A stretch of 64,000 bases of DNA from an uncultured bacterium. Lineage in GTDB: Bacteria; Hydrothermota; UBA3072. The notes under the pieces were generated by a model. The model searched no databases. It worked only from the letters and a program-made list of their open reading frames with translations, and was not told where the DNA came from. Below, one piece after another: positions 2,857 to 63,038 of the stretch (its first letter is position 1; each line of letters opens with the position of its first letter). A program made the position numbers and the translations under genes. The DNA is taken from the NCBI GenBank assembly GCA_964534175.1, contig CAZHNS010000009.1, positions 460 through 64,459 of the forward strand, in the 5' to 3' direction.

Positions 2857-4455
2857 TCACCTTCCTACCGAAACGACTTCCTTCTCTATACTCCTCACAC
2901 CAGTGTCCGCATCTTCAATCAATAAAAAAACTACATAAAGACCGGTAGGGACTATCTCATCCCTGCTATCCTTTCCATTCCAGACCCACTCTCCTGCTTC
3001 TCCCCCATAAATCCCTGAACCCTCCCTTAAAAGATGACCTCTTCTATCGAAAATCTTAAGCGTTACTTCATTTCTCAAATACGGAAGGTTAAAGGAAATA
3101 ACACTCATCTCATCTACCCCATCACCATCTGGTGTAAAATGCGCAGGGTTTACAGAAAGGGCAACATCCGTTCTCTTATATTCTGCAAATACGGAATTCT
3201 CGACTCCGGGTGTTCCTCCTTCCAGGACGGACTGCCCCCAATTAGTAGAATTATCGGCTGATATACCCGGACTAATCCTCTCCAGAGAATAATTCCTCTC
3301 GGCATCATCGCCGGAATAAATCATCCCATCCAAAACAAATCCATTCTCATCAAATAAAAAAACGCTGTCTCCATTGTTTAAAAGAGACAAATCCATCTGT
3401 AATACAGATGAAGAAATTCCGCCGTAATAACCCAAAAAAGAAATCGAATCCGAAGATATCACAATATAATCGCCGGAAGGAACTTCTATTCCATCAGCAG
3501 AAACACCATCCAGCGAAAAAGAATCAAGAGAAACGGTATATAGAGATCGATTAAAAAGTTCTATCCATTCAGGTGGTCCGTCCGGAGCATACATAATCTC
3601 ATTTATAATTAAATCCGAAATTCCCTCACCTATTTTAACCCTTCTAAAAACAGTTTTTTCTATTAAATCGAAACCTATCAAATAAAACCCTTCTAAAGAT
3701 AACGAAAAATCGATTCGAAAAGAAGAATCCTGCGCAATTTCAGAAAGAACAAAGCTATCAATCAATTCTCCCTCATCGAGAATTTTATTACGATTCTCAT
3801 CACTGAAAACCTCTATAGCTCCGCTTAGCTCCGAATCATAATGATTTAATAAAAGAACTGATACAGTATTACCCAGAACCCAAAGAGAATCAATCGTGAA
3901 ATCAGGAAAAGAATAGACCGAATTTACTCTTCCGGGTGTAGAACCGGAAACATCTACGCAAGTACTCCAATTTTCAGGGATATCACCACTATAGGGGTAA
4001 ACCCTTTCCACGGAAACCCCATCTCCCGAACTTAAAGGATAATAATACGTAGAAGCAGTATCACCGTCCGAAGAAATAATAGCAATTGGATCCGTAGTTG
4101 AAAGCCCATTTCCTATTGTTGTATTACCAACCGTAAGCAATAAGCACGAAGGGACACCATAGGGCATATAATTTTCACCCGTATCCACGTACTCGGGATC
4201 CATAACAAGAGCAAACTCTCCCGGCATAAGCACAGAATTAGAATCATTAGAGAGAGAATAAAAAGGCACAATTTCATCCACAGCATCGAAATCAGTAATC
4301 CGCCAGTCATTCAAATCGACTGCGCCAGGACCAATATTAAAAATCTCAACAAACTCATTTCTGTCTTCAGGACAACCAACCCCACTGGAACCGAGCGGGT
4401 TTGACATTACCTCGTTGATACAGACAGCAGAAAATAACAAAAATAAACAATACAT
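2857..4455 (-). CDS. Secreted lamin-tail-domain protein (2 LTDs) with C-terminal FlgD-Ig/CHU-type sorting domain
   Basis: Signal peptide; INEVMSNP..NEFVEIFN and IINEIMYAP..EWIELFN; STPGRVNS/GTPGVENS; C-terminal FTPDGDGVDE..IFDRRG..WNGKD..PTGLY. Confidence 0.85.
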   Translation of the reverse strand: MYCLFLLFSAVCINEVMSNPLGSSGVGCPEDRNEFVEIFNIGPGAVDLNDWRITDFDAVDEIVPFYSLSNDSNSVLMPGEFALVMDPEYVDTGENYMPYGVPSCLLLTVGNTTIGNGLSTTDPIAIISSDGDTASTYYYPLSSGDGVSVERVYPYSGDIPENWSTCVDVSGSTPGRVNSVYSFPDFTIDSLWVLGNTVSVLLLNHYDSELSGAIEVFSDENRNKILDEGELIDSFVLSEIAQDSSFRIDFSLSLEGFYLIGFDLIEKTVFRRVKIGEGISDLIINEIMYAPDGPPEWIELFNRSLYTVSLDSFSLDGVSADGIEVPSGDYIVISSDSISFLGYYGGISSSVLQMDLSLLNNGDSVFLFDENGFVLDGMIYSGDDAERNYSLERISPGISADNSTNWGQSVLEGGTPGVENSVFAEYKRTDVALSVNPAHFTPDGDGVDEMSVISFNLPYLRNEVTLKIFDRRGHLLREGSGIYGGEAGEWVWNGKDSRDEIVPTGLYVVFLLIEDADTGVRSIEKEVVSVGR

Positions 4456-8586: not shown

Positions 8587-11259
8587 ATGTACGACAAAAG
8601 AAAAATAGTAGGCTTCTTATCTGTATTAGTCGTTTTAATTTCTACGTATTTATACACCATCGCTCCCACTGTTTCGCTCTGGGATTGCGGAGAATTTATA
8701 ACCTGTGCGCACATTTTAGGAGTAGCACACCCTCCGGGAACGCCTTTTTTTACTTTAATCGGCAGAATATTTGACATTATTATTCCTTTTAATGAAGTAG
8801 CAAAAAGGATAAACTTCCTTTCTTCTCTCTCATCCGCTGTAGCTGGGGGATTCCTTTACCTTATCATACTATCGGTTTTTCAGCGATTCAGAGAAAACAG
8901 AGGGAAAAAGATACCACTAAAAATTCATCCGATCGCAATATTTTGCTCTATTGGAGCCGGACTCTCTTACAGTGTATGGGATACATCGGTAGAAACGGAA
9001 GTTTATTCCACATCAATCTTAATACTGGTAATTAGTTTATGGCTTGCTCTTCACTGGGACGAAAACCGTAAAATGAGGGGTGACGATAACTATCTTTTAC
9101 TTCTAGTTTACTTGATTTTTTTATCGTTCGGCATCCATCTTATACCCTTACTTCTTATTCCGGGAATTTTGGTCTTTGTGTTAATTACTGACAAAAAAAT
9201 ATTTAACAACCCAAAATTAATTCTTTTTTCAGTAGCTCTTATTTTAATAGGTATTTCAACATATTATTATTTAATGGTAAGAGCACACGCCAACCCAGCA
9301 ATAAACGAAGCAAGTCCGAGCAATTTTTCGGCCTTATGGGATGTTATATCAAGGGAACAATACGGATCAATGAAGATGTTTCCAAGAAAAACTCAAATAG
9401 ATACCAATCTCACTCCTTTTGTCGCGTTATTCGAACAGATAAAAATATTTTTCAAGTATTTCTCATGGCAATATTTCCCTTATCCGAGGGAATCTGATGT
9501 CAACACTCTATTAAAGTATACTTCCATAGCAGGCACATATATATATGTCATATTAGGGCTCTGGGGTATGTTCACTCATTATAAGAAAGATAAAAAATCA
9601 TTTTATTTATTCTTCATTCTGTACCTTCTTGTAAGTTTAGGTCTTGTTTTTTATTTGAATTTAAAATTTTCTCCTTCCGACCCCAACCCTACCCATAAAG
9701 GAAGAGAGGTAAGAGAAAGAGATTATTTCTGGACTCCCGCTTTCTTTCTTTTTATGTTTTACGTGTCAAATGGGCTATACTGGATATATTTAAAATTAAA
9801 AAAGATGGGTAATTCGTATGGGCACGCATGGATAACTCTGTGTTTTCTGATAGGATTTGCACCATTTATCTCAAACATAAAAAGTCACGCCAACAGAAGG
9901 GGAAACTGGATAGCAAGCGACTATGCTCATAACCTATTAACGACTCCAGAAGACTACTCAATTCTATTTACATTCGGAGATAACGATACCTTTCCGGTTT
10001 GGTTCCTGCAGGAAGTTAAAAATTTCAGAAAGTTTGACAAAAAAAACAAAAAAGGAATCCAGGTTGCGAATTTTTCAATAATGAATACAAGCTGGTATAT
10101 AAAACAGTTAAAAGCGGCTGGCATCCCAATGGATTTTGCTTCCCCATTTAAAGGAACCAATGTTGAAAGCAAATACAATAGAATTAAAAAAAGCGGAAAG
10201 ACCAACGAGGATTTCGAGGAATGGATAATCAATAATATACAACCAATGAGATGCGAAGACGGAAAATGGATAAGACCTGCAGATATTGTAGCCAGAAATA
10301 TAATTCTCAGTTCAATCGGAATAAAACCTTCTCTCGAAGATTTAATGATGCCGGGAAAATCTTTCGTCGACAAATATATAAAAAAAGATTTTAATCCTTC
10401 AATTAATATTTATTTCGCTTTCCCCCCTGACAACTATTCAAGAAAACTCTTTGGTCCTCATCTGGAATTGGAAGGCTTTTCTTTCCGCCTGGTAGGGAAA
10501 AAGGGCAAAGACATGATAAATTACAAAAAGATATTCGAAAAACTCAATCATGAATTTAAAACCAGTTACTGTGATAACCCAACCATATATACAGGACCGG
10601 CTCAAAAAAACCCTCTATTCAACCATACATATATATATCTAACCCTCAGTGATACTGCATTAAGAAAATTTATAAATAGAAACAGAAGAACAATACTGGG
10701 ACCGCAAAAAGATACATTAAGAATGTTGGAAAATATACTAAAACGAGCTTTTCTTTTTTATGTAAACTCAAAGTTTTCCTTATCAACACCATTAGAAACA
10801 GCGGAGGGACTGGAAAAAGTATATTCGTTGCTCAAAGAGGAAAAAAGAGCGACCAATTTTTGTGACTCGCTTCTTTCTATAATAAGTACACCACCGCTTC
10901 ATATCCTTAGAGCTGAAATGTTAATTTTTAAAGCAAAATCAAAGAAAGGGAGTAAGGAAGAATTCAGAAAAGCAGAGGAAGAGTTTTTGTCTCTGATTAA
11001 TAATGAAAACTATAAGCCTTTAGCATATAAGGGGCTCATTGAACTTTACTCTCTGACTAATAACGACGATAAAATAAAAGAAATAATAAGAGAGATGAGA
11101 AATGACACTAAAATTGTCGATAAAGTTATAATTCTTTTAATCAGATTTGACCCCGAAGGAGCCATAAAATTACTCACAAACTGGAAAGAACTATATCCCG
11201 GCGAGGCTGCAAGAATCAACCAAATAATAAAAGAGTTGAAAAATAGAAGAATTCAATAA
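8587..11259 (+). CDS. DUF2723 / TMEM260-like GT-C membrane protein (candidate protein O-mannosyltransferase)
   Basis: APTVSLWDCGEF, LGVAHPPGTPFFTL, ETEVY, ERDYF, FTFGDNDTFP motifs; many TM helices, then a soluble helical C-terminus. Confidence 0.9.
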   Translation: MYDKRKIVGFLSVLVVLISTYLYTIAPTVSLWDCGEFITCAHILGVAHPPGTPFFTLIGRIFDIIIPFNEVAKRINFLSSLSSAVAGGFLYLIILSVFQRFRENRGKKIPLKIHPIAIFCSIGAGLSYSVWDTSVETEVYSTSILILVISLWLALHWDENRKMRGDDNYLLLLVYLIFLSFGIHLIPLLLIPGILVFVLITDKKIFNNPKLILFSVALILIGISTYYYLMVRAHANPAINEASPSNFSALWDVISREQYGSMKMFPRKTQIDTNLTPFVALFEQIKIFFKYFSWQYFPYPRESDVNTLLKYTSIAGTYIYVILGLWGMFTHYKKDKKSFYLFFILYLLVSLGLVFYLNLKFSPSDPNPTHKGREVRERDYFWTPAFFLFMFYVSNGLYWIYLKLKKMGNSYGHAWITLCFLIGFAPFISNIKSHANRRGNWIASDYAHNLLTTPEDYSILFTFGDNDTFPVWFLQEVKNFRKFDKKNKKGIQVANFSIMNTSWYIKQLKAAGIPMDFASPFKGTNVESKYNRIKKSGKTNEDFEEWIINNIQPMRCEDGKWIRPADIVARNIILSSIGIKPSLEDLMMPGKSFVDKYIKKDFNPSINIYFAFPPDNYSRKLFGPHLELEGFSFRLVGKKGKDMINYKKIFEKLNHEFKTSYCDNPTIYTGPAQKNPLFNHTYIYLTLSDTALRKFINRNRRTILGPQKDTLRMLENILKRAFLFYVNSKFSLSTPLETAEGLEKVYSLLKEEKRATNFCDSLLSIISTPPLHILRAEMLIFKAKSKKGSKEEFRKAEEEFLSLINNENYKPLAYKGLIELYSLTNNDDKIKEIIREMRNDTKIVDKVIILLIRFDPEGAIKLLTNWKELYPGEAARINQIIKELKNRRIQ

Positions 11260-12834: not shown

Positions 12835-12906
12835 TGGGGCGTCGCCAAGCGGCAAGGCACGAGATTTTGGGTCTCGCATACGTAGGTTCGAATCCTACCG
12901 CCCCAG
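12835..12906 (+). tRNA. tRNA-Gln(TTG), CCA not encoded
   Basis: Acceptor stem TGGGGCG/CGCCCCA, D arm GCCAAGCGGCAAGGC, anticodon stem CGAGA-TTTTGGG-TCTCG, T arm GTAGGTTCGAATCCTAC; usual position before prs. Confidence 0.95.
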
Positions 12907-35662: not shown

Positions 35663-38600
35663 CTGAACAAAAGATTATTTGTATCGCTACTTTTTACCAT
35701 TTTCATAACTACCAATTCGGTTTTTGCCAGAGGTAATGAAAAAATCAAATTAACGGGTTTTCGAATCGAATCATCTAAAAAAAACGAGCCATCTAATAAT
35801 ATCGACCGTAAATCTAACCGAACAAAAATCCTATCTTCTCGTTTAGACAGACTTCACAAACTTTACACCGATAAGGGAGAATATATTCAGTTTGCCAAAC
35901 AATCCGACCTGCAACTTATCGAAGATAGAGTAGTTGTAACTGTTTTACCCCAACCCGGTATTACAACGGCAGATATAGATGAAAACAATCTAAAAGCTTT
36001 CGGCTCAAAGATTCAAGCAAAAGCAAAACACTCCATGAGAGTCGAAATACCAATAAGCGAGCTTGAGAATGTAGCAAACTCAATTAAAGAGCTCGCAGAA
36101 ATCATACCCCCTATGAAACCAAAAGAACACGCAGTAACCAGTGAAGGTGTTGCACTTATGAATGCCGACCATTGGCACTCAGTAGGTGATTCGGGAACAG
36201 GTGTTAAAGTAGCTGTTATCGATGGTGGCTTTATGTCCTTAACTGATGCGCAAACCGAAGATGACATACCATCATCTTATGTAAGTCATGACTTTTCCGG
36301 AACCGGGCTCGAGGCAGGTACGCCCCATGGTACAGCCGTAGCTGAAGCAATTTTTGATCTGGTTCCTAACGCAGAATTTTATTTATACAAGATAGCAGAT
36401 GGAACCGATCTTGAAAACGCAAAAGATTCCTGCATCAGTAATGGTGTCGACATCGTCAACCATTCAATGGGATGGTACAATGCCAGTTACTACGACGGCA
36501 CGGGGCTTATTTGTAATATTATCGATGATGCCATCTCCAACGGTATTTGCTGGGTCAATTCAGCAGGTAATGACGCAGAAATGCATTATCGTTCTGTTTT
36601 TGATGATACCAATAGAACACATAATTTCAGCGGCAGCGGTGGAAACATTAACTATTTTGGTCCCGGAGACGGATCCGCCTATGTCATCGATGCAGGGTCT
36701 AGAATCGATGTTTTTCTAAACTGGGACGCTTATCCAACTACCACGGAAGATTATGATCTGGCGTTATATTACTGGAGGGAAGCACCACCACCATCGCAAT
36801 GGATATTAGTTGACGCTTCCACCAATGATCAAACCAGCGGAAGCTGGCCATATCCTACCGAACAAATATCTTATGTAGCCGAACATACGACTCCATACGG
36901 TGTAGTTGTCTGGGAGGACTCGACCACCATGAATCATGACTTTACGCTTTTCAACTGGATAGCTCCTTTTAATTACCAGACCGCGTCGAGCAGCATCACA
37001 GATCCTGCAAGTGCAACAGACGTCATTTCTGTCGGTGCTATAGATAGAAATGACTATACAAGTGGTCCCCAGGAAGACTTCAGCTCTCAGGGACCTACAA
37101 CAGACGGAAGAACCAAACCGGATGTCGCAGCACCTGACAATTGTAATAGTTACGCTTACGGATATTGGTACGGCACTTCCCTATCATCCCCGCATACAGC
37201 CGGGGTCTGCGCTTTACTTAAATCACGATTCCCCGGATATAGTAATACTGAAATCCGAGATTATCTATATACGAATTGTACAGTTGATTTGGGAACCTTA
37301 GGAAAAGATAATATCTATGGCTGGGGAAAAGTCGAAATGCCGGACATTTCCTTAACGGTAACTTCTCCCAATGGCGGAGAAGATTTTCAGGTAGACAGTG
37401 TTCATAATGTTACCTGGACTTCAAGCGGTACAAGCGGAGGTGTCAAAATTGAATATTCTACCAACAATGGAACGAGCTGGGCGGACGTGATTGCGAGCAT
37501 TCCCGATACGGGGGTTTATCCCTGGACTATACCTGATACGCCTTCAGATAGTTGTCTTCTTCGGATAACCGACACAATTGGGAGCCCTTCGGATACAAGT
37601 GATGCTTTATTTACGATTTCCCCGATTCCGTTCATAACAGTTGCTACTCCCAACGGTGGAGAGGACTGGCAGGTAGCAAGCAGCCAAGACATTACATGGA
37701 CTTCGAGCGGTACAAGTGGGGGCGTCCGGGTACAATATTCGACCGACAGTGGCTCGAGCTGGTCGGACGTGATTGCGAGCATTCCCGACACCGGAGCTTA
37801 CTCCTGGACTATACCTGATACACCTTCAGACAGTTGTCTTGTGAGAGTTGCGGATACAAATGAAAGTCTCGCGGATACAAGTGATGCCATATTTACGATT
37901 TCCCCGATTCCGTTCATAACAGTTGCCACTCCCAACGGTGGAGAAAACTGGCAGGTAGCAAGCAGCCAAGACATTATCTGGACTTCAAGTGGTACAAGTG
38001 GAGGCGTCCGGGTACAATATTCGACCGACAGTGGCTCGAGCTGGTCGGACGTAATTGCAAGCATTCCCGACACCGGGGCTTATCCCTGGACTATACCTGA
38101 TACACCTTCAGACAGTTGTCTTGTGAGAATTGCCGATACAAATGGAAGCCTCGCGGATACAAGTGATGCCATATTTACGATTTCCCCTATCCCATACATA
38201 ACGATTACGGCACCAAACGGCAGAGAAGACTGGGGAAGAGGTTATAGTTATGATATTACATGGACTTCGGCTGGTACCAGTGGCGACGTCAGAGTCGAAT
38301 ATTCTATCAACAATGGGACAAACTGGTCAGACGTAATTGCCAGTATGCCCGATACGGGGGCATATCCCTGGACAATCCCCACTGATACAATTTCGGATAG
38401 TTGTCTTGTTAGAATATCCGATACGGATGGAAGTCCAGTGGACACAAGCGATTCCATATTTGCAATCGTATCTGTTACATCTATCCCTATACCTAAATTA
38501 CCCGAAGTTTATTCTTTTAATACAAAAGGAATCACCGCAGGAAATCTGTTTGAAATAAAATACGCTCTTCCCGAAAAAGCTAAGTTCAAACTTGAGGTAT

Positions 38601-38767
38601 ATGATATAAAAGGAACAAAAATAGAAGAGATTTCAGAAGAAAATCGAGCGGGCTTCTATTCAATGAAGATAAACATGAGTGGTAAACCTGCAGGTGTGTA
38701 CTTTATCAGAATGGAAGCAAATGGGAAAAAATTTACCAAAACAAATAAGGTTGTATTAGTAAGATAG
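35663..38767 (+). CDS. Secreted S8 (subtilisin-like) serine protease with four Ser/Thr-rich Ig-like repeats and a FlgD/T9SS-like C-terminal domain; predicted CTG start
   Basis: Catalytic triad VAVIDGG, PHGTAVA, YGTSLSSP. The frame is open for 124 codons upstream of ATG 36035 and encodes signal peptide (M)NKRLFVSLLFTIFITTNSVFA. SD AGGAGG 35651-35656; in-frame TAG 35645-35647; 1034 aa. Confidence 0.9.
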   Translation: MNKRLFVSLLFTIFITTNSVFARGNEKIKLTGFRIESSKKNEPSNNIDRKSNRTKILSSRLDRLHKLYTDKGEYIQFAKQSDLQLIEDRVVVTVLPQPGITTADIDENNLKAFGSKIQAKAKHSMRVEIPISELENVANSIKELAEIIPPMKPKEHAVTSEGVALMNADHWHSVGDSGTGVKVAVIDGGFMSLTDAQTEDDIPSSYVSHDFSGTGLEAGTPHGTAVAEAIFDLVPNAEFYLYKIADGTDLENAKDSCISNGVDIVNHSMGWYNASYYDGTGLICNIIDDAISNGICWVNSAGNDAEMHYRSVFDDTNRTHNFSGSGGNINYFGPGDGSAYVIDAGSRIDVFLNWDAYPTTTEDYDLALYYWREAPPPSQWILVDASTNDQTSGSWPYPTEQISYVAEHTTPYGVVVWEDSTTMNHDFTLFNWIAPFNYQTASSSITDPASATDVISVGAIDRNDYTSGPQEDFSSQGPTTDGRTKPDVAAPDNCNSYAYGYWYGTSLSSPHTAGVCALLKSRFPGYSNTEIRDYLYTNCTVDLGTLGKDNIYGWGKVEMPDISLTVTSPNGGEDFQVDSVHNVTWTSSGTSGGVKIEYSTNNGTSWADVIASIPDTGVYPWTIPDTPSDSCLLRITDTIGSPSDTSDALFTISPIPFITVATPNGGEDWQVASSQDITWTSSGTSGGVRVQYSTDSGSSWSDVIASIPDTGAYSWTIPDTPSDSCLVRVADTNESLADTSDAIFTISPIPFITVATPNGGENWQVASSQDIIWTSSGTSGGVRVQYSTDSGSSWSDVIASIPDTGAYPWTIPDTPSDSCLVRIADTNGSLADTSDAIFTISPIPYITITAPNGREDWGRGYSYDITWTSAGTSGDVRVEYSINNGTNWSDVIASMPDTGAYPWTIPTDTISDSCLVRISDTDGSPVDTSDSIFAIVSVTSIPIPKLPEVYSFNTKGITAGNLFEIKYALPEKAKFKLEVYDIKGTKIEEISEENRAGFYSMKINMSGKPAGVYFIRMEANGKKFTKTNKVVLVR
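37349..38475 (+). repeat. Four 282-bp tandem coding repeats (94 aa)
   Basis: PNG codons at 37367, 37649, 37931 and 38213 (exact 282-nt period); copies 2 and 3 are nearly identical. Confidence 0.92.
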
Positions 38768-42673: not shown

Positions 42674-44419
42674 ATGGTAAATTTTAAATTCAAGACTCTT
42701 CTAATCCTATTACTCTTCTTAATAGCTACTTCGTTATCTGCGGAAGAACGACCGGTAATACAATGGTCAAATACCTACGGTGAAGGAGTTGCTCGTTCGA
42801 TTCAGCAGACTTCCGATGGAGGGTTCATTGTCTGTGGCGATACCGCAAGCGGCTCATTTGATGATGCAAGAATACAAACGATTAAACTCAATTCATCCGG
42901 AGGAACAACATGGCGAAAAACTCTTTCTTGGGAAGGTGCATATGACTTTGGAAATGGGTTTTCCGTCCAAGAGACCTCTGATGGTAATTATATAGTCTGT
43001 GGACACTTAGGATTAAGGCACTTCCTGGCTAAACTGGATTCGGATGGAGACAGCGTTTGGACTGCCTTTCCAGAGGATTATAATGGATACAGTGCCACAG
43101 GGCATACAGTCCGTCAAACTTCGGATGGAGGATATATAAGCGTAGGAACAACTTGGTTAATGAGCGGCTTAGGCGGCGGGGTAATAACTAAGATATTTGT
43201 TGCAAAAACAAGCTCTCAAGGCGACACTTTATGGCAACGAAATTATTATCTTGCAGAAACAGGAATAAACGAAGGCTATTCAATTTTACAATCAGGAGAT
43301 AGTGATTATATTATCGCCGGTTATGCAACCAATCCTGATGACACAACAATTGACCGTGCTGTACTTTTCAAAATAGATAGTTTATCAATCTACGGTTGGG
43401 CCCCACCGGTATGGTATCAATGTTACGGATCAAGCGAAGCAAAGATTTTTTCAGTAATAAAAACATCTGATGGTGGATTTATAACGACAGCGGGAAAAAA
43501 CGGCGGAGATATTATAATCACAAAAACTAACTCAAGCGGGGACTCCTTATGGGCAAAGACATTTGATGGTTCTCAAGGACCTTTCTATGCCAGTGAAGAG
43601 AAAGCAGACGCCGGCGATCATTTGATTCAACAAACCACCGACGGCGGATTCGTCATAACTGGACAAAAAGATGGAGATGTCTATCTGTTTAAGATAGACT
43701 CAGATGGAGACACTCTATGGACAGGAAAATATGGAGATGGCTATGGACGTTCAGTTTATTGTACTTCAGACGGTGGATACGTTATTGCCGGAGAACAAAA
43801 TGGAGACTTTCTTGTTACAAAAGTAATTCCTTCATACTTATTGCTTCAGAACGACACAGTAGGAATAGGAGATACAAATAATTACGTCGCCAGAGATTCA
43901 ATTAAAGCAGCCGGAAATTCTACTTACTTTGTGATAGAAGGCAACGGTTCAACCGGCGGTTATTGCACAATGGAAGCCGGAATCCTGATTACACTAAAAC
44001 CGGGGTTCCAGGCACAAACAGGTAGTATCTTTAGCGCAATTATCAACACCTCATTAGGCTTATCATCGTATAAGAGTCTTCCAGGACTATCCTTCCCTGA
44101 GAATACTGAATCAGAGAAAGAGACTAAAGAGACTATTCCCAAAGTCTTCAGCTGCGCGCAGAACAAACCCAATCCCTTCACGCGTAATACAACCATTAAC
44201 TACGGATTGCCGAAGGATTCCGATGTTATTCTCACTGTCTACAACCTGGCAGGTCAGGCAGTTCGAACCTTGGTTAACGCAAACCAAACTGCAGGATTTA
44301 AATCGGTCATGTGGGATGGAAAAAACAGCATGGGTGCACATGTACCTAAAGGCGTATACTTCTACGTTTTCAAGGCGGGCGACTTTGAAAAACACCATAA
44401 GATGATATTACTTAAGTGA
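42674..44419 (+). CDS. Secreted beta-propeller repeat protein with 3-coathanger-stack-like domain and FlgD/T9SS-like C-terminal domain
   Basis: Repeated (Q/E)TSDGG(F/Y)I..G and GD(T/S)LW motifs; ARDSIKA...ITLKPGFQAQTGS; QNKPNPF..TTINYGL..YNLAGQ..WDGKN..GVYFY. Confidence 0.85.
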   Translation: MVNFKFKTLLILLLFLIATSLSAEERPVIQWSNTYGEGVARSIQQTSDGGFIVCGDTASGSFDDARIQTIKLNSSGGTTWRKTLSWEGAYDFGNGFSVQETSDGNYIVCGHLGLRHFLAKLDSDGDSVWTAFPEDYNGYSATGHTVRQTSDGGYISVGTTWLMSGLGGGVITKIFVAKTSSQGDTLWQRNYYLAETGINEGYSILQSGDSDYIIAGYATNPDDTTIDRAVLFKIDSLSIYGWAPPVWYQCYGSSEAKIFSVIKTSDGGFITTAGKNGGDIIITKTNSSGDSLWAKTFDGSQGPFYASEEKADAGDHLIQQTTDGGFVITGQKDGDVYLFKIDSDGDTLWTGKYGDGYGRSVYCTSDGGYVIAGEQNGDFLVTKVIPSYLLLQNDTVGIGDTNNYVARDSIKAAGNSTYFVIEGNGSTGGYCTMEAGILITLKPGFQAQTGSIFSAIINTSLGLSSYKSLPGLSFPENTESEKETKETIPKVFSCAQNKPNPFTRNTTINYGLPKDSDVILTVYNLAGQAVRTLVNANQTAGFKSVMWDGKNSMGAHVPKGVYFYVFKAGDFEKHHKMILLK

Positions 44420-55458: not shown

Positions 55459-56079
55459 TCAGTATTTAACAATATTTCCTCTACGCATAAAAAAATTCTT
55501 TAACCGTCTCAGAATCTTCCTTCCAGGTTTAGTGGGTTCCAGGTGATAATAATTCACCTTCGGGAAATCGGTATCAGGCACAGCTTTTCCAAGGAAAGGA
55601 CACAATTTTTCCCATCCGTCACCATTACAAATATCCATAATTAATAGATTCCCTCTATTTTTAAAAAAGTCTTTAACTTTTTGGTTATGCTCTTTGTAAC
55701 ATTTAAGAAATGTTTCTTCGGAGAAATGAGTAAGGCCTGAAAATATCTTGGTCATAATATATTTATTAGCTTTTTTCCAGGGAACCACAAATTTAAAATG
55801 TCTTCTGGCTGAATCTAACCACTTATTCTCTTCTCTCACTGTAAGGATAAATTTTGCATCAGGATATAATTCGTATAACTCTTTATATAAAAAAGCGATA
55901 GAACCTATAAATGCATCTCCTCTCTTCAGGAATTGAGAATTTTTAAGAATTTTATTCCTGTATTCCTGCGCTATCTCAACAGGATCATGAAATACCTTAA
56001 AATTAAGTATTTCCAATGCCAGAGCCAAACTGGAGGTAGCAGTCTTAGGATAACCTATTCCAAATGTTTTTTCACTCAT
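55459..56079 (-). CDS. Sulfotransferase (Sulfotransfer_4-like family)
   Basis: 5'-PSB loop GIGYPKTATSSL, PDAKFILTVR..W..S, DGWEKLCPFLGKAVP..FPKVN. Start ATG 56079 after GGAG (alternative 56091). Confidence 0.9.
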   Translation of the reverse strand: MSEKTFGIGYPKTATSSLALALEILNFKVFHDPVEIAQEYRNKILKNSQFLKRGDAFIGSIAFLYKELYELYPDAKFILTVREENKWLDSARRHFKFVVPWKKANKYIMTKIFSGLTHFSEETFLKCYKEHNQKVKDFFKNRGNLLIMDICNGDGWEKLCPFLGKAVPDTDFPKVNYYHLEPTKPGRKILRRLKNFFMRRGNIVKY

Positions 56080-56080
56080 T

Positions 56081-57193
56081 TTATCTCCCATTTATACATT
56101 GATAATAAAACTTTTCCTGCTGTCTTGATATCCAATCCCAATTATACTTCCTTGCCCATTTCCTACCTTCTTCTCCAAGCCTCTTCCTCATTTTATTATT
56201 ATGTATAATCTCATACATAGAACTGCCCAAGCCTTTCACATCCTCGGGGCTAACTAAGATTCCTGTCTTGCTGTCTATTATAACTTCTTGAAGAGAGGAA
56301 GTTCTGGTACCTATTATTGCCTTACCAGATGCCGAAGCTTCCATAGCTACAATCCCCCAAGATTCAAATCTAGACGGCATACATACAAAAAGGGCGCTGG
56401 ATAATAATTGCCTCTTTTTCTCCCTTTCAAAAATCTTTCCAATAAATTTAATCCTGCTCTTCATTGTTGATTTACTTATCAGATGTTTTAACTTTTCCTC
56501 GTCTTTACCTCCCCCAGCTATCACTAATTCTATCCCTTTTACCCTCACAGCAACTTTCTCAAAAGCCTTTATTAGAATATCAATTCCTTTCTGGTAAATA
56601 TCTATTCTACCCAGAAATAGGATATAGGCCTTCTCGGAAACCACAGCATCAAACAAATACTCATCTACCCCGTTGGGAATAACTACATTTTTTGTACTCT
56701 TATTAATCAAAAATTTGTTTTCCAATTTCTTTTTTATATAAGTAGATACCGAAATAAAATTATCATAAAGTTTTAATCCGAGCTTTTCAAACACAATAAA
56801 AAATATACCGATTAAACCATGAGTTTTTATTGCATGTTCACTGTAAAGATTCTGAATTGATGCTATAACTGGTCTTTTAGTGAAAAGAGGGATAAAACAG
56901 GGAGAGTGCGCCGAAAATTCATCTATAATTAAATCATATTCCAGCTGTTTTATATATTTCCAAGCCATTAAACCAAAAGAAAGTCTGCTCAGAAAGTAAC
57001 TTTTTTTAGATCCTATCCTAATATATTTTATACCATCTTTTATTTGGTCCCTGGCTCCCGGATAATTACCGGTAATTATAGTTATATCATGTTTTTCCGA
57101 TAGCCTTCTTGAGATTTCATAGACCCTTAAAGCTCCACCACCTCCTACCCAAGGATTTCCTAAATCATCATAGATTAAATGAATTATCTTCAC
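56081..57193 (-). CDS. GT4 glycosyltransferase
   Basis: P..GGGA.R, IPNGVD, FLGRI..QKG, PSRFESWGIVAMEA; GTG start. Confidence 0.95.
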   Translation of the reverse strand: MKIIHLIYDDLGNPWVGGGGALRVYEISRRLSEKHDITIITGNYPGARDQIKDGIKYIRIGSKKSYFLSRLSFGLMAWKYIKQLEYDLIIDEFSAHSPCFIPLFTKRPVIASIQNLYSEHAIKTHGLIGIFFIVFEKLGLKLYDNFISVSTYIKKKLENKFLINKSTKNVVIPNGVDEYLFDAVVSEKAYILFLGRIDIYQKGIDILIKAFEKVAVRVKGIELVIAGGGKDEEKLKHLISKSTMKSRIKFIGKIFEREKKRQLLSSALFVCMPSRFESWGIVAMEASASGKAIIGTRTSSLQEVIIDSKTGILVSPEDVKGLGSSMYEIIHNNKMRKRLGEEGRKWARKYNWDWISRQQEKFYYQCINGR

Positions 57194-57197
57194 GAAA

Positions 57198-58757
57198 TTA
57201 AATATATCCTAAATCTTTCAGGTGATCCTTCACTGATGCGTCTTCCTTCTCCGAAAGAAAGAAAGTCTTCTTTTGCTCATAAGGGAGATTCTTGAAAACT
57301 TCTTTAACAGAACCTGCTTCAATATAATCCTTCAGAATATTACCATCAACGTCTTCCGGAATTGGTAACTCGCCCAAGGCACAGGCAGTAGGGAATACAT
57401 CTCTGACAGAAGCTCTTTCTATTTCCTTGCCTTCTATTATACCTTGACCATGCATAAGAATAATCCCATCCATCGCACAAACATGATGCCCTTCCAGAGC
57501 AGGTCGGTCCAATTTCTTATCGAATAATCTTCCCGGCAAATTTGTATTTAGCCGGTAATTTCTTGTAGTTGTATATGTTAAATCTGGCATTTCCTCAAAA
57601 AATTCTCCTTTATATAATTCCCACTTAGTTTTTGCATCAAGAAAAATACTCTCTCCATTTGCCGGATCTTTTGCCTCTAAAAGCAATTTTTTCAAATCTT
57701 CTGCTGTTTTTTTTCTACTACCAGTATCCGGATAATATTCCGGGTTTAAATAGATTCCTGCATACCAATTTGCATATGCTTTTGTTTTACTCCAATCTAC
57801 TTTTGAACTCATAGTTTCTCTGACAATTTGTTTTTTAAAGTTATCGGGCAATAAATACTGTACAAAATTAAATTTTTTTACCACCGCTATTCCAAATTTA
57901 TAAATCAAGTTAGAAAACTTTCCTTTAATATGTTTCGCTCGTTTTAAATAACCATTGTCTTCTAAGTACTGATTTATATAAAAATATTTCTGTGGGGCAT
58001 CAGTAAAACCGTGGTCTGAAACAAAAATTATTCGGTCTGGTTTTTCCTGTTCGTATATCTTTTCTACATTCTTTTCCAACCTTTTTAAATATTCTAATAC
58101 CTTGCTTTTATCCTTCCAGAAATAATGCATAAAATCATCAAATTCCTTAAAATTTATCATAAATAGATTCATCTCGTTTTTAGCAAGAAGTTTTAATACC
58201 CACTCGGTCCTTTCTTCCATAATTTGAATAAGAGCCTTTTCCACCCCTGGTTTGTCAATATTGCTATCACGAAACCACTTTTTTTCTATATTTATTCTGT
58301 ACCCCTCAATTTCATCAATAAGTTCAGGTGGGTAAGTAAAATCCAAAGAACCTCTTGGCGTCATAAAACCTGCTATAAGAAATCCATTAACTTCTGTGGG
58401 AGGATAACTTACTGGTATATTTACAATACCAACTTTACTCCCAAATTCAGAAGCCCACTCCCAAAGAGACCAGGTTTTTATATCAGTAAAATTAATAAAT
58501 TGAGCTGAAGAGAAATGTTCAGGATCAAATCCTTTTTTATCACTTTTATATAAGAAAGGCCCAATTTTTGCAGGATTTTTGCCTGTAAATATCACAGGCC
58601 AGGCCAGCATCGAATATGACGGAAGCGTACTTTTTAACTTGCCAAAGGCACCCTGCTTTGCAAGTTTAGAAAAAAAAGGTAAATCACCATTTTCAATCCA
58701 TTCTTTTACTTCCTTGTAGGGGGCTCCATCAAGCCCAATAATAAAGAGTTTTTTCAT
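57198..58757 (-). CDS. Alkaline phosphatase superfamily protein (type I phosphodiesterase/NPP-like), paralogue 2
   Basis: IIGLDGA, STLPSYSMLAW..FTGKNP, NIPVSYPP, FDDFMH, VSDHGF, EGHH, C-terminal HLKDLGYI. Confidence 0.9.
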   Translation of the reverse strand: MKKLFIIGLDGAPYKEVKEWIENGDLPFFSKLAKQGAFGKLKSTLPSYSMLAWPVIFTGKNPAKIGPFLYKSDKKGFDPEHFSSAQFINFTDIKTWSLWEWASEFGSKVGIVNIPVSYPPTEVNGFLIAGFMTPRGSLDFTYPPELIDEIEGYRINIEKKWFRDSNIDKPGVEKALIQIMEERTEWVLKLLAKNEMNLFMINFKEFDDFMHYFWKDKSKVLEYLKRLEKNVEKIYEQEKPDRIIFVSDHGFTDAPQKYFYINQYLEDNGYLKRAKHIKGKFSNLIYKFGIAVVKKFNFVQYLLPDNFKKQIVRETMSSKVDWSKTKAYANWYAGIYLNPEYYPDTGSRKKTAEDLKKLLLEAKDPANGESIFLDAKTKWELYKGEFFEEMPDLTYTTTRNYRLNTNLPGRLFDKKLDRPALEGHHVCAMDGIILMHGQGIIEGKEIERASVRDVFPTACALGELPIPEDVDGNILKDYIEAGSVKEVFKNLPYEQKKTFFLSEKEDASVKDHLKDLGYI

Positions 58758-58865: not shown

Positions 58866-60155
58866 TTAACTTCCGAGATTAAGTGTTATCCGGAGAGGAT
58901 CTTGAATAGAATCCACTTTATCTAAATCGATTCCTCTTCCAAAGATAACCGCATCTTCATAAGTATGCATACCATCAATCGCACCGGGCTTCTGGCAAAC
59001 CTCACCAGTATTTACATTTCCTTTTAAATCGAAACCCCATTTCGGATGAACTATTACGTCCGCCGCGTTCTCAATATAATCTCCAGAATATATCTCTTCA
59101 CGCAGGAAAGCTTTTTCTATTATCTGTTCACCCTCAGGGGATTTTAAATTCAGTAATTTTTCTTTTAGCTCTTCTCGTAATTTACCATAATCGTCAGTTG
59201 AAACAGAACCCTTTGCTTCTCTCTCCTTCAGATTTATAAAAATCCTTCCCGGAATAAGTGAATAAGCTTTCGAGTTAGGACTGAGTTCTGTAACATTTCT
59301 AGGATTATCAACATCCCAAAGAAGATAGCCTTCATCCTCTAAAAACTGATTTAACTGAACATTATATTTTACTCTGCAGAAACCATGGTCGGATAAAACA
59401 ATAAATATATCTTCATCACCCAGTAATTCATACGTTTTCCCTATCCATTCATCCAATTTAGTATAGAATCTGTCAAAGTCGCCCCTGAACTCACCGCCAT
59501 CCTCATAATCTCCCCAGAAAAAATGGTTAATTCTGTCTGTTTCCATTATATGACATTGAGCAAGAAAATAATCATCCTTTGCCAATAAATCAAAGAATAC
59601 TTCCATCCTTATATCGAGCGCTTTATGTAACTCATCCATAAATTTTCTTCTATTAGTATGTCCAAATCTTGGGTCGACATCGATAATATATCCCTTTTCC
59701 TTTAAATACCCAACGTAAGAAGAAGGCTTCACCACTTTTTCGATACTTGGTGTAAGGAAACCGGATATTAAAATACCGTTAACTTCCTCAGGTGGATAAG
59801 TGACGGGAACATTCAGGACAAGAACTTTCTTTCCCTCTTCGGAAAGTTTCTTCCAGAGAGTTTTGGCTGTTCTGTCCGATGCAAGAGGAATTTTTAAAGT
59901 AAAAGGTTCGTTATTTCTATCTACAAAACCAAAAATAGAATGTTCCGCGGGATTTTTTCCGGTCAGATATGAAGTCCATGCTACCGAAGAAACAGTTGGA
60001 TAAACCGAATTATACTTTTTTAAATTTTCATTTTCACTTGTTATCTTTCTTATATTCTTAAACCTTCCCTCATCTAACTCGGCTTTTAAAAAGCTGTACG
60101 GAACGCCATCTATACCTAAAACAACTATTTTTTTCTTTTTTTTCCTAAAGAGCAT
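58866..60155 (-). CDS. Alkaline phosphatase superfamily protein (type I phosphodiesterase/NPP-like), paralogue 1
   Basis: VLGIDGV, SVYPTVSSVAW..YLTGKNP, NVPVTYPP, TDRINH, LSDHGF, DGMH. Confidence 0.9.
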   Translation of the reverse strand: MLFRKKKKKIVVLGIDGVPYSFLKAELDEGRFKNIRKITSENENLKKYNSVYPTVSSVAWTSYLTGKNPAEHSIFGFVDRNNEPFTLKIPLASDRTAKTLWKKLSEEGKKVLVLNVPVTYPPEEVNGILISGFLTPSIEKVVKPSSYVGYLKEKGYIIDVDPRFGHTNRRKFMDELHKALDIRMEVFFDLLAKDDYFLAQCHIMETDRINHFFWGDYEDGGEFRGDFDRFYTKLDEWIGKTYELLGDEDIFIVLSDHGFCRVKYNVQLNQFLEDEGYLLWDVDNPRNVTELSPNSKAYSLIPGRIFINLKEREAKGSVSTDDYGKLREELKEKLLNLKSPEGEQIIEKAFLREEIYSGDYIENAADVIVHPKWGFDLKGNVNTGEVCQKPGAIDGMHTYEDAVIFGRGIDLDKVDSIQDPLRITLNLGS

Positions 60156-60170
60156 TAAAATCTCCCTTAT

Positions 60171-60932
60171 TTATAGGACTTTAATCAGAGTAGCCAACCC
60201 AAGACAAACAGTTATCACTCCAATCGCAATAACGTGCTTTTTTACATCACTATTTTTTACTACACGAACCGCAAAAGGTATAGCAATAATACTTCCAAAT
60301 AACAATGGCAAAACGGGCATAAAGTTGATAATTCTTACTTTCAAAAGATAAACTAAAAGAGCTACCAGACAGGTTATTGCTTCGGTAAATGAACTTATAC
60401 TAACCGAACTTTTTGAATCTAAACCGGATAAAATCTGCCCGCTTGTAATAATCGGACCATAACCTCCTCCGCTTATTCCCTTGTTAAACGAAGCAAAAAA
60501 ACCAAGAAAATTTATTTTCACCCAGCTAAAACCAATCTTTCTTTCCCTAAATACAAGTACCAGCACACCCATCAAAAAAGCTATTAAACCAACATATATT
60601 TTCACAAAGAATTGTGAAAGATTTACAGCAAGAAATGCAGCGCTTCCGCCGCCTATTATACTAAAAAAGGTCAAGACCATCGCAATTTTAAATGATTTAC
60701 TGTCAACGGAAAAATCTACATTTCCAGAACGGTGATGAAATATAGCAGAAAGTATTCCCGTAAAAACTTGAACGAAAAGAAGAGAAGGTACAATTTGAAT
60801 GGGATCGAACCCAAGTAAAATAAAAGAAGGCACAACAATAGTACCAAAACCTTCGCCGAGCGCAGTATTCAAAAACTGCGCGATAAAAGATACAGCTATT
60901 ATTAGAATTATAACAGAAACACTAAATTCCAC
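60171..60932 (-). CDS. TauE/SafE family sulfite/sulfate transporter
   Basis: TALGEGFGTIVVP, GISGGGYGP, 8 TM; GTG start. Confidence 0.9.
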   Translation of the reverse strand: MEFSVSVIILIIAVSFIAQFLNTALGEGFGTIVVPSFILLGFDPIQIVPSLLFVQVFTGILSAIFHHRSGNVDFSVDSKSFKIAMVLTFFSIIGGGSAAFLAVNLSQFFVKIYVGLIAFLMGVLVLVFRERKIGFSWVKINFLGFFASFNKGISGGGYGPIITSGQILSGLDSKSSVSISSFTEAITCLVALLVYLLKVRIINFMPVLPLLFGSIIAIPFAVRVVKNSDVKKHVIAIGVITVCLGLATLIKVL

Positions 60933-60941
60933 GAAACTTTC

Positions 60942-62174
60942 TCAAAGAATAATACCACCGGCAACTACGTCATTGCCTCTTATTAGAACAAATCTTCCCA
61001 TTTCCTTTACGTCTCCAAATTTTGTAAAAGCAAGCGGTTTTTTTGTTTTTATCTCTACTTCCCCTATCTCGAGATTATTAATCGAAGAAGCTTTTTCCTC
61101 TAGAACCTCTAGCGAGGAAGAATCTACTCTCTCTTTAATTTCTGCAATATTTGCCTTGGTCTCCTGCGTTGCCAAACGGAGACCTATTTTTTCGTCCTTG
61201 CTGAAAGGTTCTTTTGACAACCATATAAGACTGGACTGGATCTTATCCCCTATAGTAAGATCCTTTTCTTCTACACAAAGAACAATCCCTCTCTCCAGGA
61301 AAACAGGGTCAGCAGTTGTAATACCAATCGATTCTCCTGCCACAGCTTCATTCACCGATTCTCTAAACTTTTCTATGGATTTTACAGTGGTCTTACCTCC
61401 ACCGGGGAGTATTTTTACTTCCATTCCGGACGAAAGAGTTCCCGCTTCGATTCTGCCCACCGCAATCCTCTTACCGGATATTTTATAAACATCCTGAACT
61501 GGAAAAATAAGACTCTTATTTTCCGGAGGAACTTCGTTCTTTAGAGAATCGAGTGATTCAAGTACGGTTTTACCTTTATACCATTTCATATTCTTGGAAT
61601 GCTTTGCAACATTATCTCCCTTTAAAGCCGAAATAGGTATGTAATAATCAGGTTTTAAATTTACCGAATTTAAAAATTGATGAACTTCCTCTTTAAGACG
61701 ATTGAAATGAGCTTCTTCATAATTTACTATGTCCATTTTATTTATTACTACAATTATTTGCTCCATTCCCAACATTGAAACCAGATTAGCATGTCTCTTT
61801 GTTTGCTCTCCGACTCCTTCCTTTGCATCCACAATCAACAAAGCAGCTTCTGCCTGGGAAGCTCCTGTCAGCATATTTTTAACAAATTCGACATGTCCCG
61901 GTGCATCTATAATTACATATTCTCTTTTTTTAGTGTGGAAAAAAGTATGAGCAGTATCTATTGTTATACCCTGCTCTCTCTCTTCTCTTAAGTGATCCAT
62001 TATAAAGGCGAATTCCATCTCTCCATCCATCCTTTCTTCTGAGGCTTTTTTAAGTTCGGCTATCTTGTCAGGGGGGAGAGAATTCGTATCATAAAAAAGA
62101 CGCCCTATTAAAGTGGACTTTCCATGGTCAATATGTCCGACCATGACAAACTTTAGAGGATTTTTACCAGACAT
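60942..62174 (-). CDS. cysN: Sulfate adenylyltransferase subunit 1 (GTPase), no fused APS kinase
   Basis: GHIDHGKSTLIGRL, EREQGITID, DAPGH, TGASQA, NKMD, SALKGDNV, FPVQDV, GRFVL; 410 aa. Confidence 0.93.
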   Translation of the reverse strand: MSGKNPLKFVMVGHIDHGKSTLIGRLFYDTNSLPPDKIAELKKASEERMDGEMEFAFIMDHLREEREQGITIDTAHTFFHTKKREYVIIDAPGHVEFVKNMLTGASQAEAALLIVDAKEGVGEQTKRHANLVSMLGMEQIIVVINKMDIVNYEEAHFNRLKEEVHQFLNSVNLKPDYYIPISALKGDNVAKHSKNMKWYKGKTVLESLDSLKNEVPPENKSLIFPVQDVYKISGKRIAVGRIEAGTLSSGMEVKILPGGGKTTVKSIEKFRESVNEAVAGESIGITTADPVFLERGIVLCVEEKDLTIGDKIQSSLIWLSKEPFSKDEKIGLRLATQETKANIAEIKERVDSSSLEVLEEKASSINNLEIGEVEIKTKKPLAFTKFGDVKEMGRFVLIRGNDVVAGGIIL

Positions 62175-62180
62175 AAAGAA

Positions 62181-62981
62181 CTACATATATCCGAGAGCAC
62201 GCAGTTTCTGCATCATATAATCTGACTCTTTATCCTGGGCTCTACCACTTCTCTCGGAAATATCTGTTTCCTTAAGCTCTTTAATTATTTTATCAAGAGT
62301 ATCAGCATTTGAATCGACCGGGGCAACACAGGGCTCGCAACCAATACTCCTGAAACGTTTGCCTTTTTTCGCGAAATAAAGACTCACCACCGGAATTTCT
62401 TCTTTTTTAATATATTTCCAAATATCTAATTCCGTCCAACCAAGAAGAGGATGTACCCGTAGATGTTCTTCTTCTTTAGCCTTTGATTTATACTGGTCCC
62501 ATAGCTCCGGAGGCTGATTTTTGTAATCCCATTCGAAATCTTCATCACGCGGAGAAAAAACTCTTTCTTTAGCTCTTATCCCATGCTCATCTCTTCTTAT
62601 ACCAAGGTAGAGAGCTCTAAACCCGTATTTATTGATAGCATCCCTTAAGGCATTGGTTTTCAACTGGGTACAACACTCCAATTTAGCCTTCCCCGGTCCC
62701 ATACCTCCGGCAATAGCTTTCTCATTACGATGTACAATAAGTTTTAGATTCCATTTTTTCGCGTATTCATCTCTAAACTCATAAATTTCTTTAAACTTAT
62801 AACCGGTATCTATATGCACCACCGGAAACGGCACTTCTCCCAAAAAAGCTTTCCTTATAAGATGAATAAGCGTTGTAGAATCCTTTCCAATTGACCATAA
62901 AGCAGCTACCTTCTGGAACTGATTATATGCTTCTCTTATAATATAAATACTGTTATTTTCTAATTTTTTTAAATGATCCAT
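62181..62981 (-). CDS. cysD: Sulfate adenylyltransferase subunit 2 with CC...CxxC motif
   Basis: LE..SIYIIRE, WSIGKDS, HIDTG.KF, GIRRDE..RAKER.FS.RD..WD..NQPPELW, RVHPL..WTE.DIW.Y. Start ATG 62981 after GGAGG; adjacent to cysN. Confidence 0.92.
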   Translation of the reverse strand: MDHLKKLENNSIYIIREAYNQFQKVAALWSIGKDSTTLIHLIRKAFLGEVPFPVVHIDTGYKFKEIYEFRDEYAKKWNLKLIVHRNEKAIAGGMGPGKAKLECCTQLKTNALRDAINKYGFRALYLGIRRDEHGIRAKERVFSPRDEDFEWDYKNQPPELWDQYKSKAKEEEHLRVHPLLGWTELDIWKYIKKEEIPVVSLYFAKKGKRFRSIGCEPCVAPVDSNADTLDKIIKELKETDISERSGRAQDKESDYMMQKLRALGYM

Positions 62982-63010
62982 TATTCCTCCCGAAGAAGAA
63001 TTTCCGCAAT

Positions 63011-63038
63011 AAATTAATATTTTAACCATTAATGTCAA
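63011..63038 (-). promoter_or_regulatory. cysD operon promoter TTGACA-N16-TAATTT
   Basis: TGTCAA at 63033-63038, AAATTA at 63011-63016. Confidence 0.6.

Follow-up and report, generated by a model that had tools for sequence, protein, structure and literature searches.

Why should a subunit of ATP sulfurylase carry the cysteine pattern that holds an iron-sulfur (Fe-S) cluster in reductases of the same fold? The question is raised by a cysD gene located close to one end of a 64,000-nucleotide stretch of DNA from an uncultured bacterium (positions 460 to 64,459 of contig CAZHNS010000009.1, assembly GCA_964534175.1), the whole of which is hereafter called the window. CysDN, the GTP-coupled heterodimeric ATP sulfurylase in which CysD is the catalytic subunit, converts sulfate and ATP into adenosine 5'-phosphosulfate (APS) plus pyrophosphate. 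A first examination, hereafter the sequence-only reading, had proposed that the product of this cysD retains the four-cysteine [4Fe-4S] motif of APS reductases. The explanation that best accounts for the data, and that we consider probable, is that the gene encodes the CysD of a CysDN enzyme whose CC...CxxC motif would bind a non-redox [4Fe-4S]2+ cluster, that this state would be ancestral in CysD and repeatedly lost, and that the APS produced would serve glycan sulfation.

The cysD gene and its four cysteines

The gene (62181..62981, minus strand, stop codon included) encodes a short, four-cysteine form of sulfate adenylyltransferase subunit 2 of 266 amino acids. It starts with ATG, ends with a TAG whose last base is position 62181 and is preceded by the Shine-Dalgarno sequence GGGAGG (62986..62991, minus strand), located 4 nt 5' of the ATG. 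A longer TTG-started open reading frame (285 amino acids, start at 63038) was rejected in view of the homologues, which have 266 amino acids and begin with MDHL or MDNL, and of the position of the Shine-Dalgarno sequence.

The protein is predicted to be the catalytic ATP-pyrophosphatase subunit CysD of CysDN. It scores 363.9 bits against the NCBIfam model of the CysD subfamily, NF003587 (cut-off 195), and matches Pfam PAPS_reduct at 5.6e-45. Two stricter CysD models are missed (TIGR02039, 292.3 versus 396.6; NF009214, 301.4 versus 413) because the insert found in E. coli-type sequences is absent. Its best phmmer match among Protein Data Bank (PDB) sequences is CysD of P. syringae (1zun_A; 8.7e-70, about 48% identity), the alignment spanning the PP-loop, the RAKER...WD..NQ(R/P)PELW insert and the C-terminal SER.GR...GY tail; the segment RAKERVFSPRDEDFEWDYKNQPPELW pairs with the same segment of 1ZUN. 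This alignment falls into two pieces, about 30 residues of 1ZUN (233-261) being missing from the window protein. The PP-loop S30-I-G-K-D-S35 (62877..62894, minus strand), a CysD-type ATP pyrophosphatase motif that aligns with SIGKDS of E. coli CysD, is found together with VHIDTG and GIRRDEHGIRAKER, and all three are near-invariant in alignment A1. Taken as a whole, the protein is 43-48% identical to the CysD of E. coli (b2752) and of P. syringae (1ZUN chain A) and has in common with them SIGKDS, HxDTG, RRDE, RAKER, the WD..NQ(R/P)PELW insert, the SER.GR...GY[FM] tail and an adjacent cysN. The CysD-specific insert (..W[DN]..NQ[RP]PELW..) and the tail align with both of these proteins, whereas the reductases have neither. 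The AlphaFold2 model is of good quality (mean pLDDT, the predicted local distance difference test score, 89.5; about 90 around both cysteine pairs), and its top Foldseek match is again 1zun_A (3.7e-21); the Fe-S APS reductase 2goy_A comes next (1.9e-12), then other reductases, and PP-loop proteins of the TtuA type are among the distant matches. Only 204 residues are ordered in 1ZUN, the C-terminal subdomain being disordered.

The possibility of an APS reductase in disguise was ruled out. The Fe-S APS reductases CysH of P. aeruginosa (2GOY) and M. tuberculosis (7LHR) share with the window protein the PAPS_reduct fold, in which they are its second-best structural match, a CC...CxxC in the same columns and a lysine at CC+4. 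Unlike them, it has no ECGLH motif, its PP-loop is intact and not degenerate, it carries the CysD insert and it has a GTPase partner. The protein ends with ...QKLRALGYM, so that neither a fifth cysteine nor the catalytic cysteine of ECGLH is present, and it falls far below the cut-offs of the reductase models (TIGR02055, 69.6 versus 235.3; NF002537, 84.4 versus 154). The sequence-only reading had already pointed to the CysD-specific insert, to the adjacent cysN and to the missing ECGLH; the alignment with 1ZUN, the start of cysN 7 nt downstream of cysD and the ...LRALGYM terminus bear it out on each point.

Exactly four cysteines are present in the protein. C103 and C104, within KLECCTQLK (codons TGT TGT, 62670..62675, minus strand), form a tandem pair on helix 100-119 and align with the CC of the APS reductases of M. 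tuberculosis, P. aeruginosa and B. subtilis. C215 and C218 belong to the CxxC of SIGCEPC (C215-E-P-C218, codons TGC GAG CCC TGT, 62328..62339, minus strand). The HMMER alignment with the M. tuberculosis enzyme 7LHR pairs ECC with ECC and SIGCEPC with SIGCAPC, and in a MAFFT L-INS-i alignment that includes E. coli CysD and CysH from NC_000913.3, all four cysteines fall in the columns of the CC...CxxC ligands in three Fe-S APS reductases. The lysine at CC+4, kept in every sequence of the latter alignment, corresponds to K108 (codon at 62658..62660, minus strand), which is nearly invariant in alignment A1, present in all references and the counterpart of K144 in P. aeruginosa APS reductase. The spacing between CC and CxxC is 110 residues, versus about 80 in APS reductases, because the CysD insert lies in between. 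In assimilatory APS reductases, CC-X~80-CXXC ligates the [4Fe-4S] cluster (PMC1175818), which is located directly over the phosphosulfate pocket; the structure of the M. tuberculosis enzyme shows it held by C-C-X81-C-X2-C above the active-site cavity (PMC8173546), and a simulation study ties the cluster to the conformation of Lys144 (bioRxiv 10.64898/2026.09.04.749436). The four ligand positions read H-T, C and L in E. coli CysD (FRTLGCWPLTG), which like that of P. syringae thus differs from the window protein by H-T in place of C103-C104 and by Leu in place of C218; both also have the insert of about 30 residues (1ZUN 233-261) before the former CxxC. The coordinates and residue numbers given for the four cysteines by the sequence-only reading are exact on translation, its account of CC-X~80-CxxC as the cluster motif agrees with the two papers on APS reductase, and its remark that E. 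coli-type CysD lacks the CC pair and the second cysteine of CxxC holds.

Distribution and descent of the four-cysteine form

Both CC and CxxC are present in all of the 120 nearest database homologues, which were chosen by overall similarity (73-89% identity) and many of which have an extra cysteine (CxxCC). They originate from WOR-3, Omnitrophota, Phycisphaerae and the cultured Calderihabitans maritimus and, where named by their sources, are plain CysD or sulfate adenylyltransferase subunit 2. A scan of species-representative GTDB genomes yielded 80 loci with 67-94% identity to the window CysD. All 80 encode CCxxxK and GCxxC, the starts of the two motifs being always 111 residues apart. These loci span more than ten phyla, archaea included; among the taxa are Planctomycetota, Omnitrophota, Sumerlaeota, Nitrospirota, Actinomycetota, Patescibacteria, Clostridia (Anaerosporobacter mobilis DSM 15930, Blautia), Methanosarcinales and Altiarchaeota. 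The four-cysteine form appears to be kept mainly in lineages from sediment and other low-oxygen samples. A chance origin of the four cysteines was rejected, as all of them lie on ligand columns and are kept in 120/120 homologues and 80/80 GTDB loci.

The same state is the commonest one among 150 representatives of CysD clusters at 50% identity. The other states are the E. coli type (H/Y-T-C-L), an S-R-D-x type, which we take to be actinobacterial, and several short types devoid of these cysteines. The number of cysteines kept at the four columns is bimodal (four in 30 sequences, none or one in 25, two or three in only 9), a pattern that fits residues working together. Pairwise identity within the four-cysteine group of cluster representatives drops to about 28%. 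A conservation table computed inside this group is circular for the four cysteines and is not used as evidence. The core proposal of the sequence-only reading, namely a CysD that keeps cysteines of the APS reductase cluster type, has therefore come through the comparative tests, as the positions are homologous, the residues are conserved and their loss is mostly all-or-none.

Two observations on the family may be added. Between WOR-3 and archaea or Clostridia (loci L010-L080 versus the window), four-cysteine CysD proteins remain 67-78% identical, the corresponding values being 48-62% for CysN and about 33% for the alkaline phosphatase (AlkP)-like proteins described below; such cross-phylum conservation of CysD implies a very strong constraint, lateral transfer of the module, or both. 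Besides, eight predicted proteins of 430-737 amino acids (P0122, P0124, P0125, P0131, P0135, P0167, P0180 and P0189) contain a four-cysteine CysD domain and may be domain fusions or gene-calling artefacts.

A neighbour-joining tree, built and bootstrapped after removal of the cysteine columns, recovers a monophyletic CysD in 100% of bootstraps. It divides CysD into a long clade that contains the E. coli and S-R-D-x types (75% support) and a short clade, mostly four-cysteine, within which cysteine-less subclades are nested (50% support). Most of the cysteine-less long forms have the insert of about 30 residues just before the former CxxC, and only one of the 30 four-cysteine sequences has it. 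The long form P0215 (306 amino acids) combines the insert with all four cysteines and falls among the long forms in 85% of replicates. Another member of the long clade, P0237, which adjoins the actinobacterial type, has kept three of the four. Since the four-cysteine form is thus found in the short clade and, rarely, in the long E. coli-like clade, it is probably the ancestral state of CysD and would have been lost several times, the E. coli and actinobacterial types being among the losers. The sequence-only reading had viewed this CysD as a possible evolutionary intermediate; as its four-cysteine state is the commonest among the 50%-identity clusters and is spread over many phyla of bacteria and archaea, a retained ancestral state fits better.

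A parallel case is known in the same fold: PAPS reductase devoid of cluster (PAPS, 3'-phosphoadenosine 5'-phosphosulfate) has been proposed to derive from APS reductase by cluster loss (PMC11350084). E. coli CysH, a PAPS reductase, and moss APR-B thus show the same pattern of cluster-bearing and cluster-less forms of one fold performing the same chemistry, but these proteins are reductases and not adenylyltransferases.

Gene neighbourhood of cysD

The window has a G+C content of 36.9%. The closest relatives of its CysD come from metagenome-assembled genomes (MAGs) labelled candidate division WOR-3 or Stahlbacteria, and near-identical window DNA is present in sediment and soil metagenomes. The sequence was found in DNA metagenome runs only, with no evidence of transcription. 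An Rfam scan of the whole window at gathering thresholds detected a single tRNA (12835-12906) and no riboswitch or leader 5' of cysD; promoter and terminator scans gave counts not above those of shuffled controls.

Seven genes, all on the minus strand, make up a co-directional run in the order cysD, cysN, TauE/DUF81 permease, two PF01663 proteins, GT4 glycosyltransferase and PF17784 sulfotransferase. cysN (60942..62174) encodes a GTPase subunit of 410 amino acids without a fused APS kinase domain (TIGR02034, 365.2 bits versus a cut-off of 336.1; Pfam GTP_EFTU, GTP_EFTU_D2 and GTP-eEF1A_C), and its GTPase signature is intact. It is present in 78 of the 80 related loci and lies downstream of cysD wherever tblastn detects it. 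In L021 (CP070807.1, the complete MAG chromosome of an Omnitrophota), a GTP_EFTU fragment of 182 amino acids (9114-9662) follows cysD and a DUF2061 gene, which suggests a truncated or frameshifted cysN. DUF2061 membrane proteins of about 100 amino acids adjoin the four-cysteine cysD in 14 loci; examples are L021 (8816-9136), L028 and L082 of Calderihabitans (9668-9973). Other neighbours found across the 80 loci are epimerases (20), TauE (16) and DUF2061 (14).

The TauE/SafE (DUF81) permease gene (60171..60932; Pfam PF01925, 6.1e-28) is located between cysN and the first AlkP-like gene. In C. glutamicum, the DUF81 protein CysZ is a sulfate transporter (PMC1266029), and by analogy the permease of the window is a probable sulfate importer. 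In other phyla, a TauE/SafE permease gene lies between cysD and cysN (e.g., L014, L041, L059 and L079).

The third member of the conserved module is an AlkP-superfamily protein, here called PDE1 (58866..60155; PF01663, 7.6e-34). A gene of this type is found in 61 of the 80 loci, usually directly after cysN, in bacteria as well as in archaea. A second AlkP-superfamily protein, PDE2, has 519 amino acids (57198..58757; PF01663, 8.8e-29), and orthologous PDE pairs exist in Calderihabitans and Anaerosporobacter. The PF01663 proteins linked to four-cysteine cysD-cysN genes are cytoplasmic and often occur as two or three paralogues. PDE1 keeps the AlkP bimetal core and the invariant Ser (nucleophile). 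Its AlphaFold2 model resembles phosphonoacetate hydrolase and nucleotide pyrophosphatase/phosphodiesterase (NPP), with only 13-15% identity. No sequence relative of PDE1 was found in the PDB, its relatives are named by their sources only "alkaline phosphatase family protein", and a full-text literature search found nothing on an APS-linked AlkP-like enzyme. These proteins could act on APS.

The run ends with genes for a GT4 glycosyltransferase (56081..57193; Pfam Glycos_transf_1, 3.1e-37) and a PF17784 sulfotransferase (55459..56091; Pfam, 4.5e-36), and further glycosyltransferases and a flippase are encoded nearby. The PDB relatives of the PF17784 protein (4mua and others), the schistosome oxamniquine sulfotransferases, are titled sulfotransferases; the solved relatives use PAPS. 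No cysC, cysH or cysI was detected in the 64-kb window, even at E <= 10, and as no APS kinase is encoded there, the PAPS for this sulfotransferase would come from elsewhere or from an unconventional source. Likewise, no E. coli-like CysC, CysH or CysI is encoded within +-8 kb of cysD in the 80 loci, a 16-kb neighbourhood that is silent on the rest of each genome, and no APS kinase or reductase gene lies near cysD-cysN in the cultured Calderihabitans and Anaerosporobacter. The cysD-cysN-AlkP arrangement is found inside polysaccharide or capsule clusters of Calderihabitans maritimus and of a Methanosarcinales MAG, and in a mixed cluster of Anaerosporobacter mobilis that has carbamoyltransferase, radical SAM and AMP-binding genes as neighbours. 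Judging from this gene context, the activated sulfate made by CysDN of the window most likely goes into glycan sulfation rather than cysteine synthesis.

Elsewhere in the window, three genes (2857-4455, minus strand; 36035-38767 and 42674-44419, plus strand) encode large secreted proteins with C-terminal sorting domains of the type IX secretion system (CHU_C, Por_Secre_tail), which indicates such a system in the WOR-3-like organism. A protein of 890 amino acids (8587-11259, plus strand) has a TMEM260-like protein O-mannosyltransferase domain (PF11028, 6.6e-45).

The proposed cluster and its alternatives

The following model can be drawn. C103 and C104 would be carried by the helix that also bears the invariant active-site Lys108, and C215 and C218 by a C-terminal loop. 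Together, they would ligate a [4Fe-4S]2+ cluster whose function would be structural or electrostatic rather than redox. This cluster would join the Lys108 helix to the C-terminal loop and would hold Lys108 and the sulfate/APS site in position, as has been suggested for APS reductase. An O2-labile cofactor would explain why lineages like those of E. coli or the S-R-D-x type lost the cysteines. An Fe-S cluster by the adenylation site of a PP-loop ATP-pyrophosphatase fold is also found in the tRNA thiolases TtuA and NcsA and in DndC (PMC10853773), all distant structural matches. Their clusters are held by three cysteines at other positions and have a free Fe for sulfur chemistry, whereas the four cysteines of the window CysD occupy the positions of those of APS reductase, and sulfur insertion is not expected.

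Several points weigh against this model. Fe-S binding is deduced from positional homology and conservation only, and the identity of the metal, the role of the cluster, its O2 lability and the direction of evolution are deductions as well. Of the three reference APS reductase sequences of the alignment, only that of M. tuberculosis was partly checked, through the phmmer/7LHR alignment. That the host lineages live anaerobically is read from names and sample types. Cysteine-less CysD proteins are fully active, and the cluster is therefore dispensable for CysD chemistry. The sequence-only reading had suggested a phylogeny scored for the four cysteines: the tree does separate two clades with the four-cysteine form in both, but the support for this deep split is modest (75% for the long clade, 50% for the short one) and Fitch parsimony leaves the state of the CysD root ambiguous ({0,1}). 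Placing the quartet in the CysD ancestor rests on the assumption that regain at identical sites is far less likely than loss.

The best surviving alternative, which we nevertheless hold to be unlikely, is a site in which the four cysteines hold one metal ion, a structural Zn2+ or another, and which would staple the C-terminal loop to the CC helix. Four-cysteine sites of other PP-loop enzymes can bind zinc, as in QueC and the zinc fingers of TtuA; TtuA-type proteins are among the distant structural matches, and the sequence by itself cannot separate Zn from Fe-S. However, wherever a characterised homologue has these CC...CxxC columns, they hold a [4Fe-4S] cluster (PMC1175818, PMC8173546). Ligation by adjacent cysteines is geometrically unusual for tetrahedral Zn and established for the APS reductase cluster, and lineages mostly from anoxic habitats fit an O2-labile cofactor better.

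It is rather improbable that a cluster-bearing CysD-CysN together with its AlkP-like partner runs a different or extended reaction, for instance on another oxyanion or by channelling APS to an APS-dependent sulfuryl transfer. The recurrence of the cysD-cysN-PF01663 triad across phyla, the lack of E. coli-like CysC, CysH and CysI within +-8 kb, also in Calderihabitans and Anaerosporobacter, and the bimetal core and invariant Ser of a PDE1 that has no characterised close relative would all agree with such a reaction. Yet the active-site motifs of CysD and the GTPase signature of CysN are all intact, a 16-kb absence says nothing of the remaining genome, and the sulfotransferase of the run, from a family with PAPS-using solved members, implies the ordinary APS-to-PAPS route with a cysC located elsewhere. 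A further proposal, to which we give little credence, is that four-cysteine CysD, short CysN and the AlkP-like proteins constitute an undescribed sulfate-activation and sulfation module of lineages mainly from anoxic habitats. In it, the cluster would gate or tune APS synthesis, e.g., as a sensor of O2, redox state or iron, while the AlkP-like enzymes would take the sulfuryl group for glycans directly from APS, so that neither APS kinase nor PAPS would be needed.

Redox-active disulfides (the vicinal CC, the CxxC, or both) could also form a metal-free thiol switch that sets sulfate activation by the cellular redox state. CxxC is a classic thiol-disulfide motif, many family members carry the extra cysteine of CxxCC, and redox regulation had been raised by the sequence-only reading. 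Such a switch is very unlikely, as neither the mostly all-or-none co-retention of both pairs nor their positional identity with cluster ligands would be expected of independent disulfides, and vicinal CC disulfides are strained and rare. It is scarcely credible that the cysteines are an evolutionary vestige without present function: cysteine-less CysD proteins work and the E. coli type keeps one orphan cysteine at the third position, but the motif is strict in 120/120 and 80/80 sequences diverging to 67% identity and is kept in cluster representatives down to about 28%, a divergence that neutral cysteines would not survive.

The preferred reading thus remains a CysD with a non-redox [4Fe-4S] cluster. 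The characterised CysD proteins known to us (E. coli, P. syringae and M. tuberculosis) are all of cysteine-less types. A full-text literature search found no published description of a four-cysteine or Fe-S CysD, and hence no prior characterisation of the subtype, a finding that the sequence-only reading had named as one that would speak against its proposal. CysD is treated only as an ordinary subunit in PMC6286981, PMC10322725, PMC10853773, PMC11350084 and PMC7356697, and an Fe-S CysD is mentioned neither in the 2024 review of sulfur assimilation (PMC11350084) nor in the paper on the CysD phylogeny of anaerobic methanotrophic archaea (ANME; PMC6286981). Four-cysteine sequences are already abundant and routinely annotated as CysD.

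If this reading is true, the CysD of ATP sulfurylase joins the non-redox Fe-S enzymes, and the presence of the same cluster in an enzyme of redox-neutral adenylyl transfer would suggest that it acts structurally or electrostatically at the phosphosulfate site and not in electron transfer. The four-cysteine CysD can be viewed as a natural experiment on the old question of the role of [4Fe-4S] in assimilatory APS reductase. It also suggests parallel losses of Fe-S in CysD and in CysH (from APS to PAPS reductase), which bears on the adaptation of sulfur assimilation to oxygen and to iron limitation. Many uncultured sediment lineages may, if the cluster is real, activate sulfate in an O2-sensitive way, and the use of such a CysDN in a heterologous host would then require Fe-S assembly and work under anaerobic conditions. 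As for the linked AlkP-like genes, they hint at a step in the synthesis of sulfated glycans that is still unexplored.

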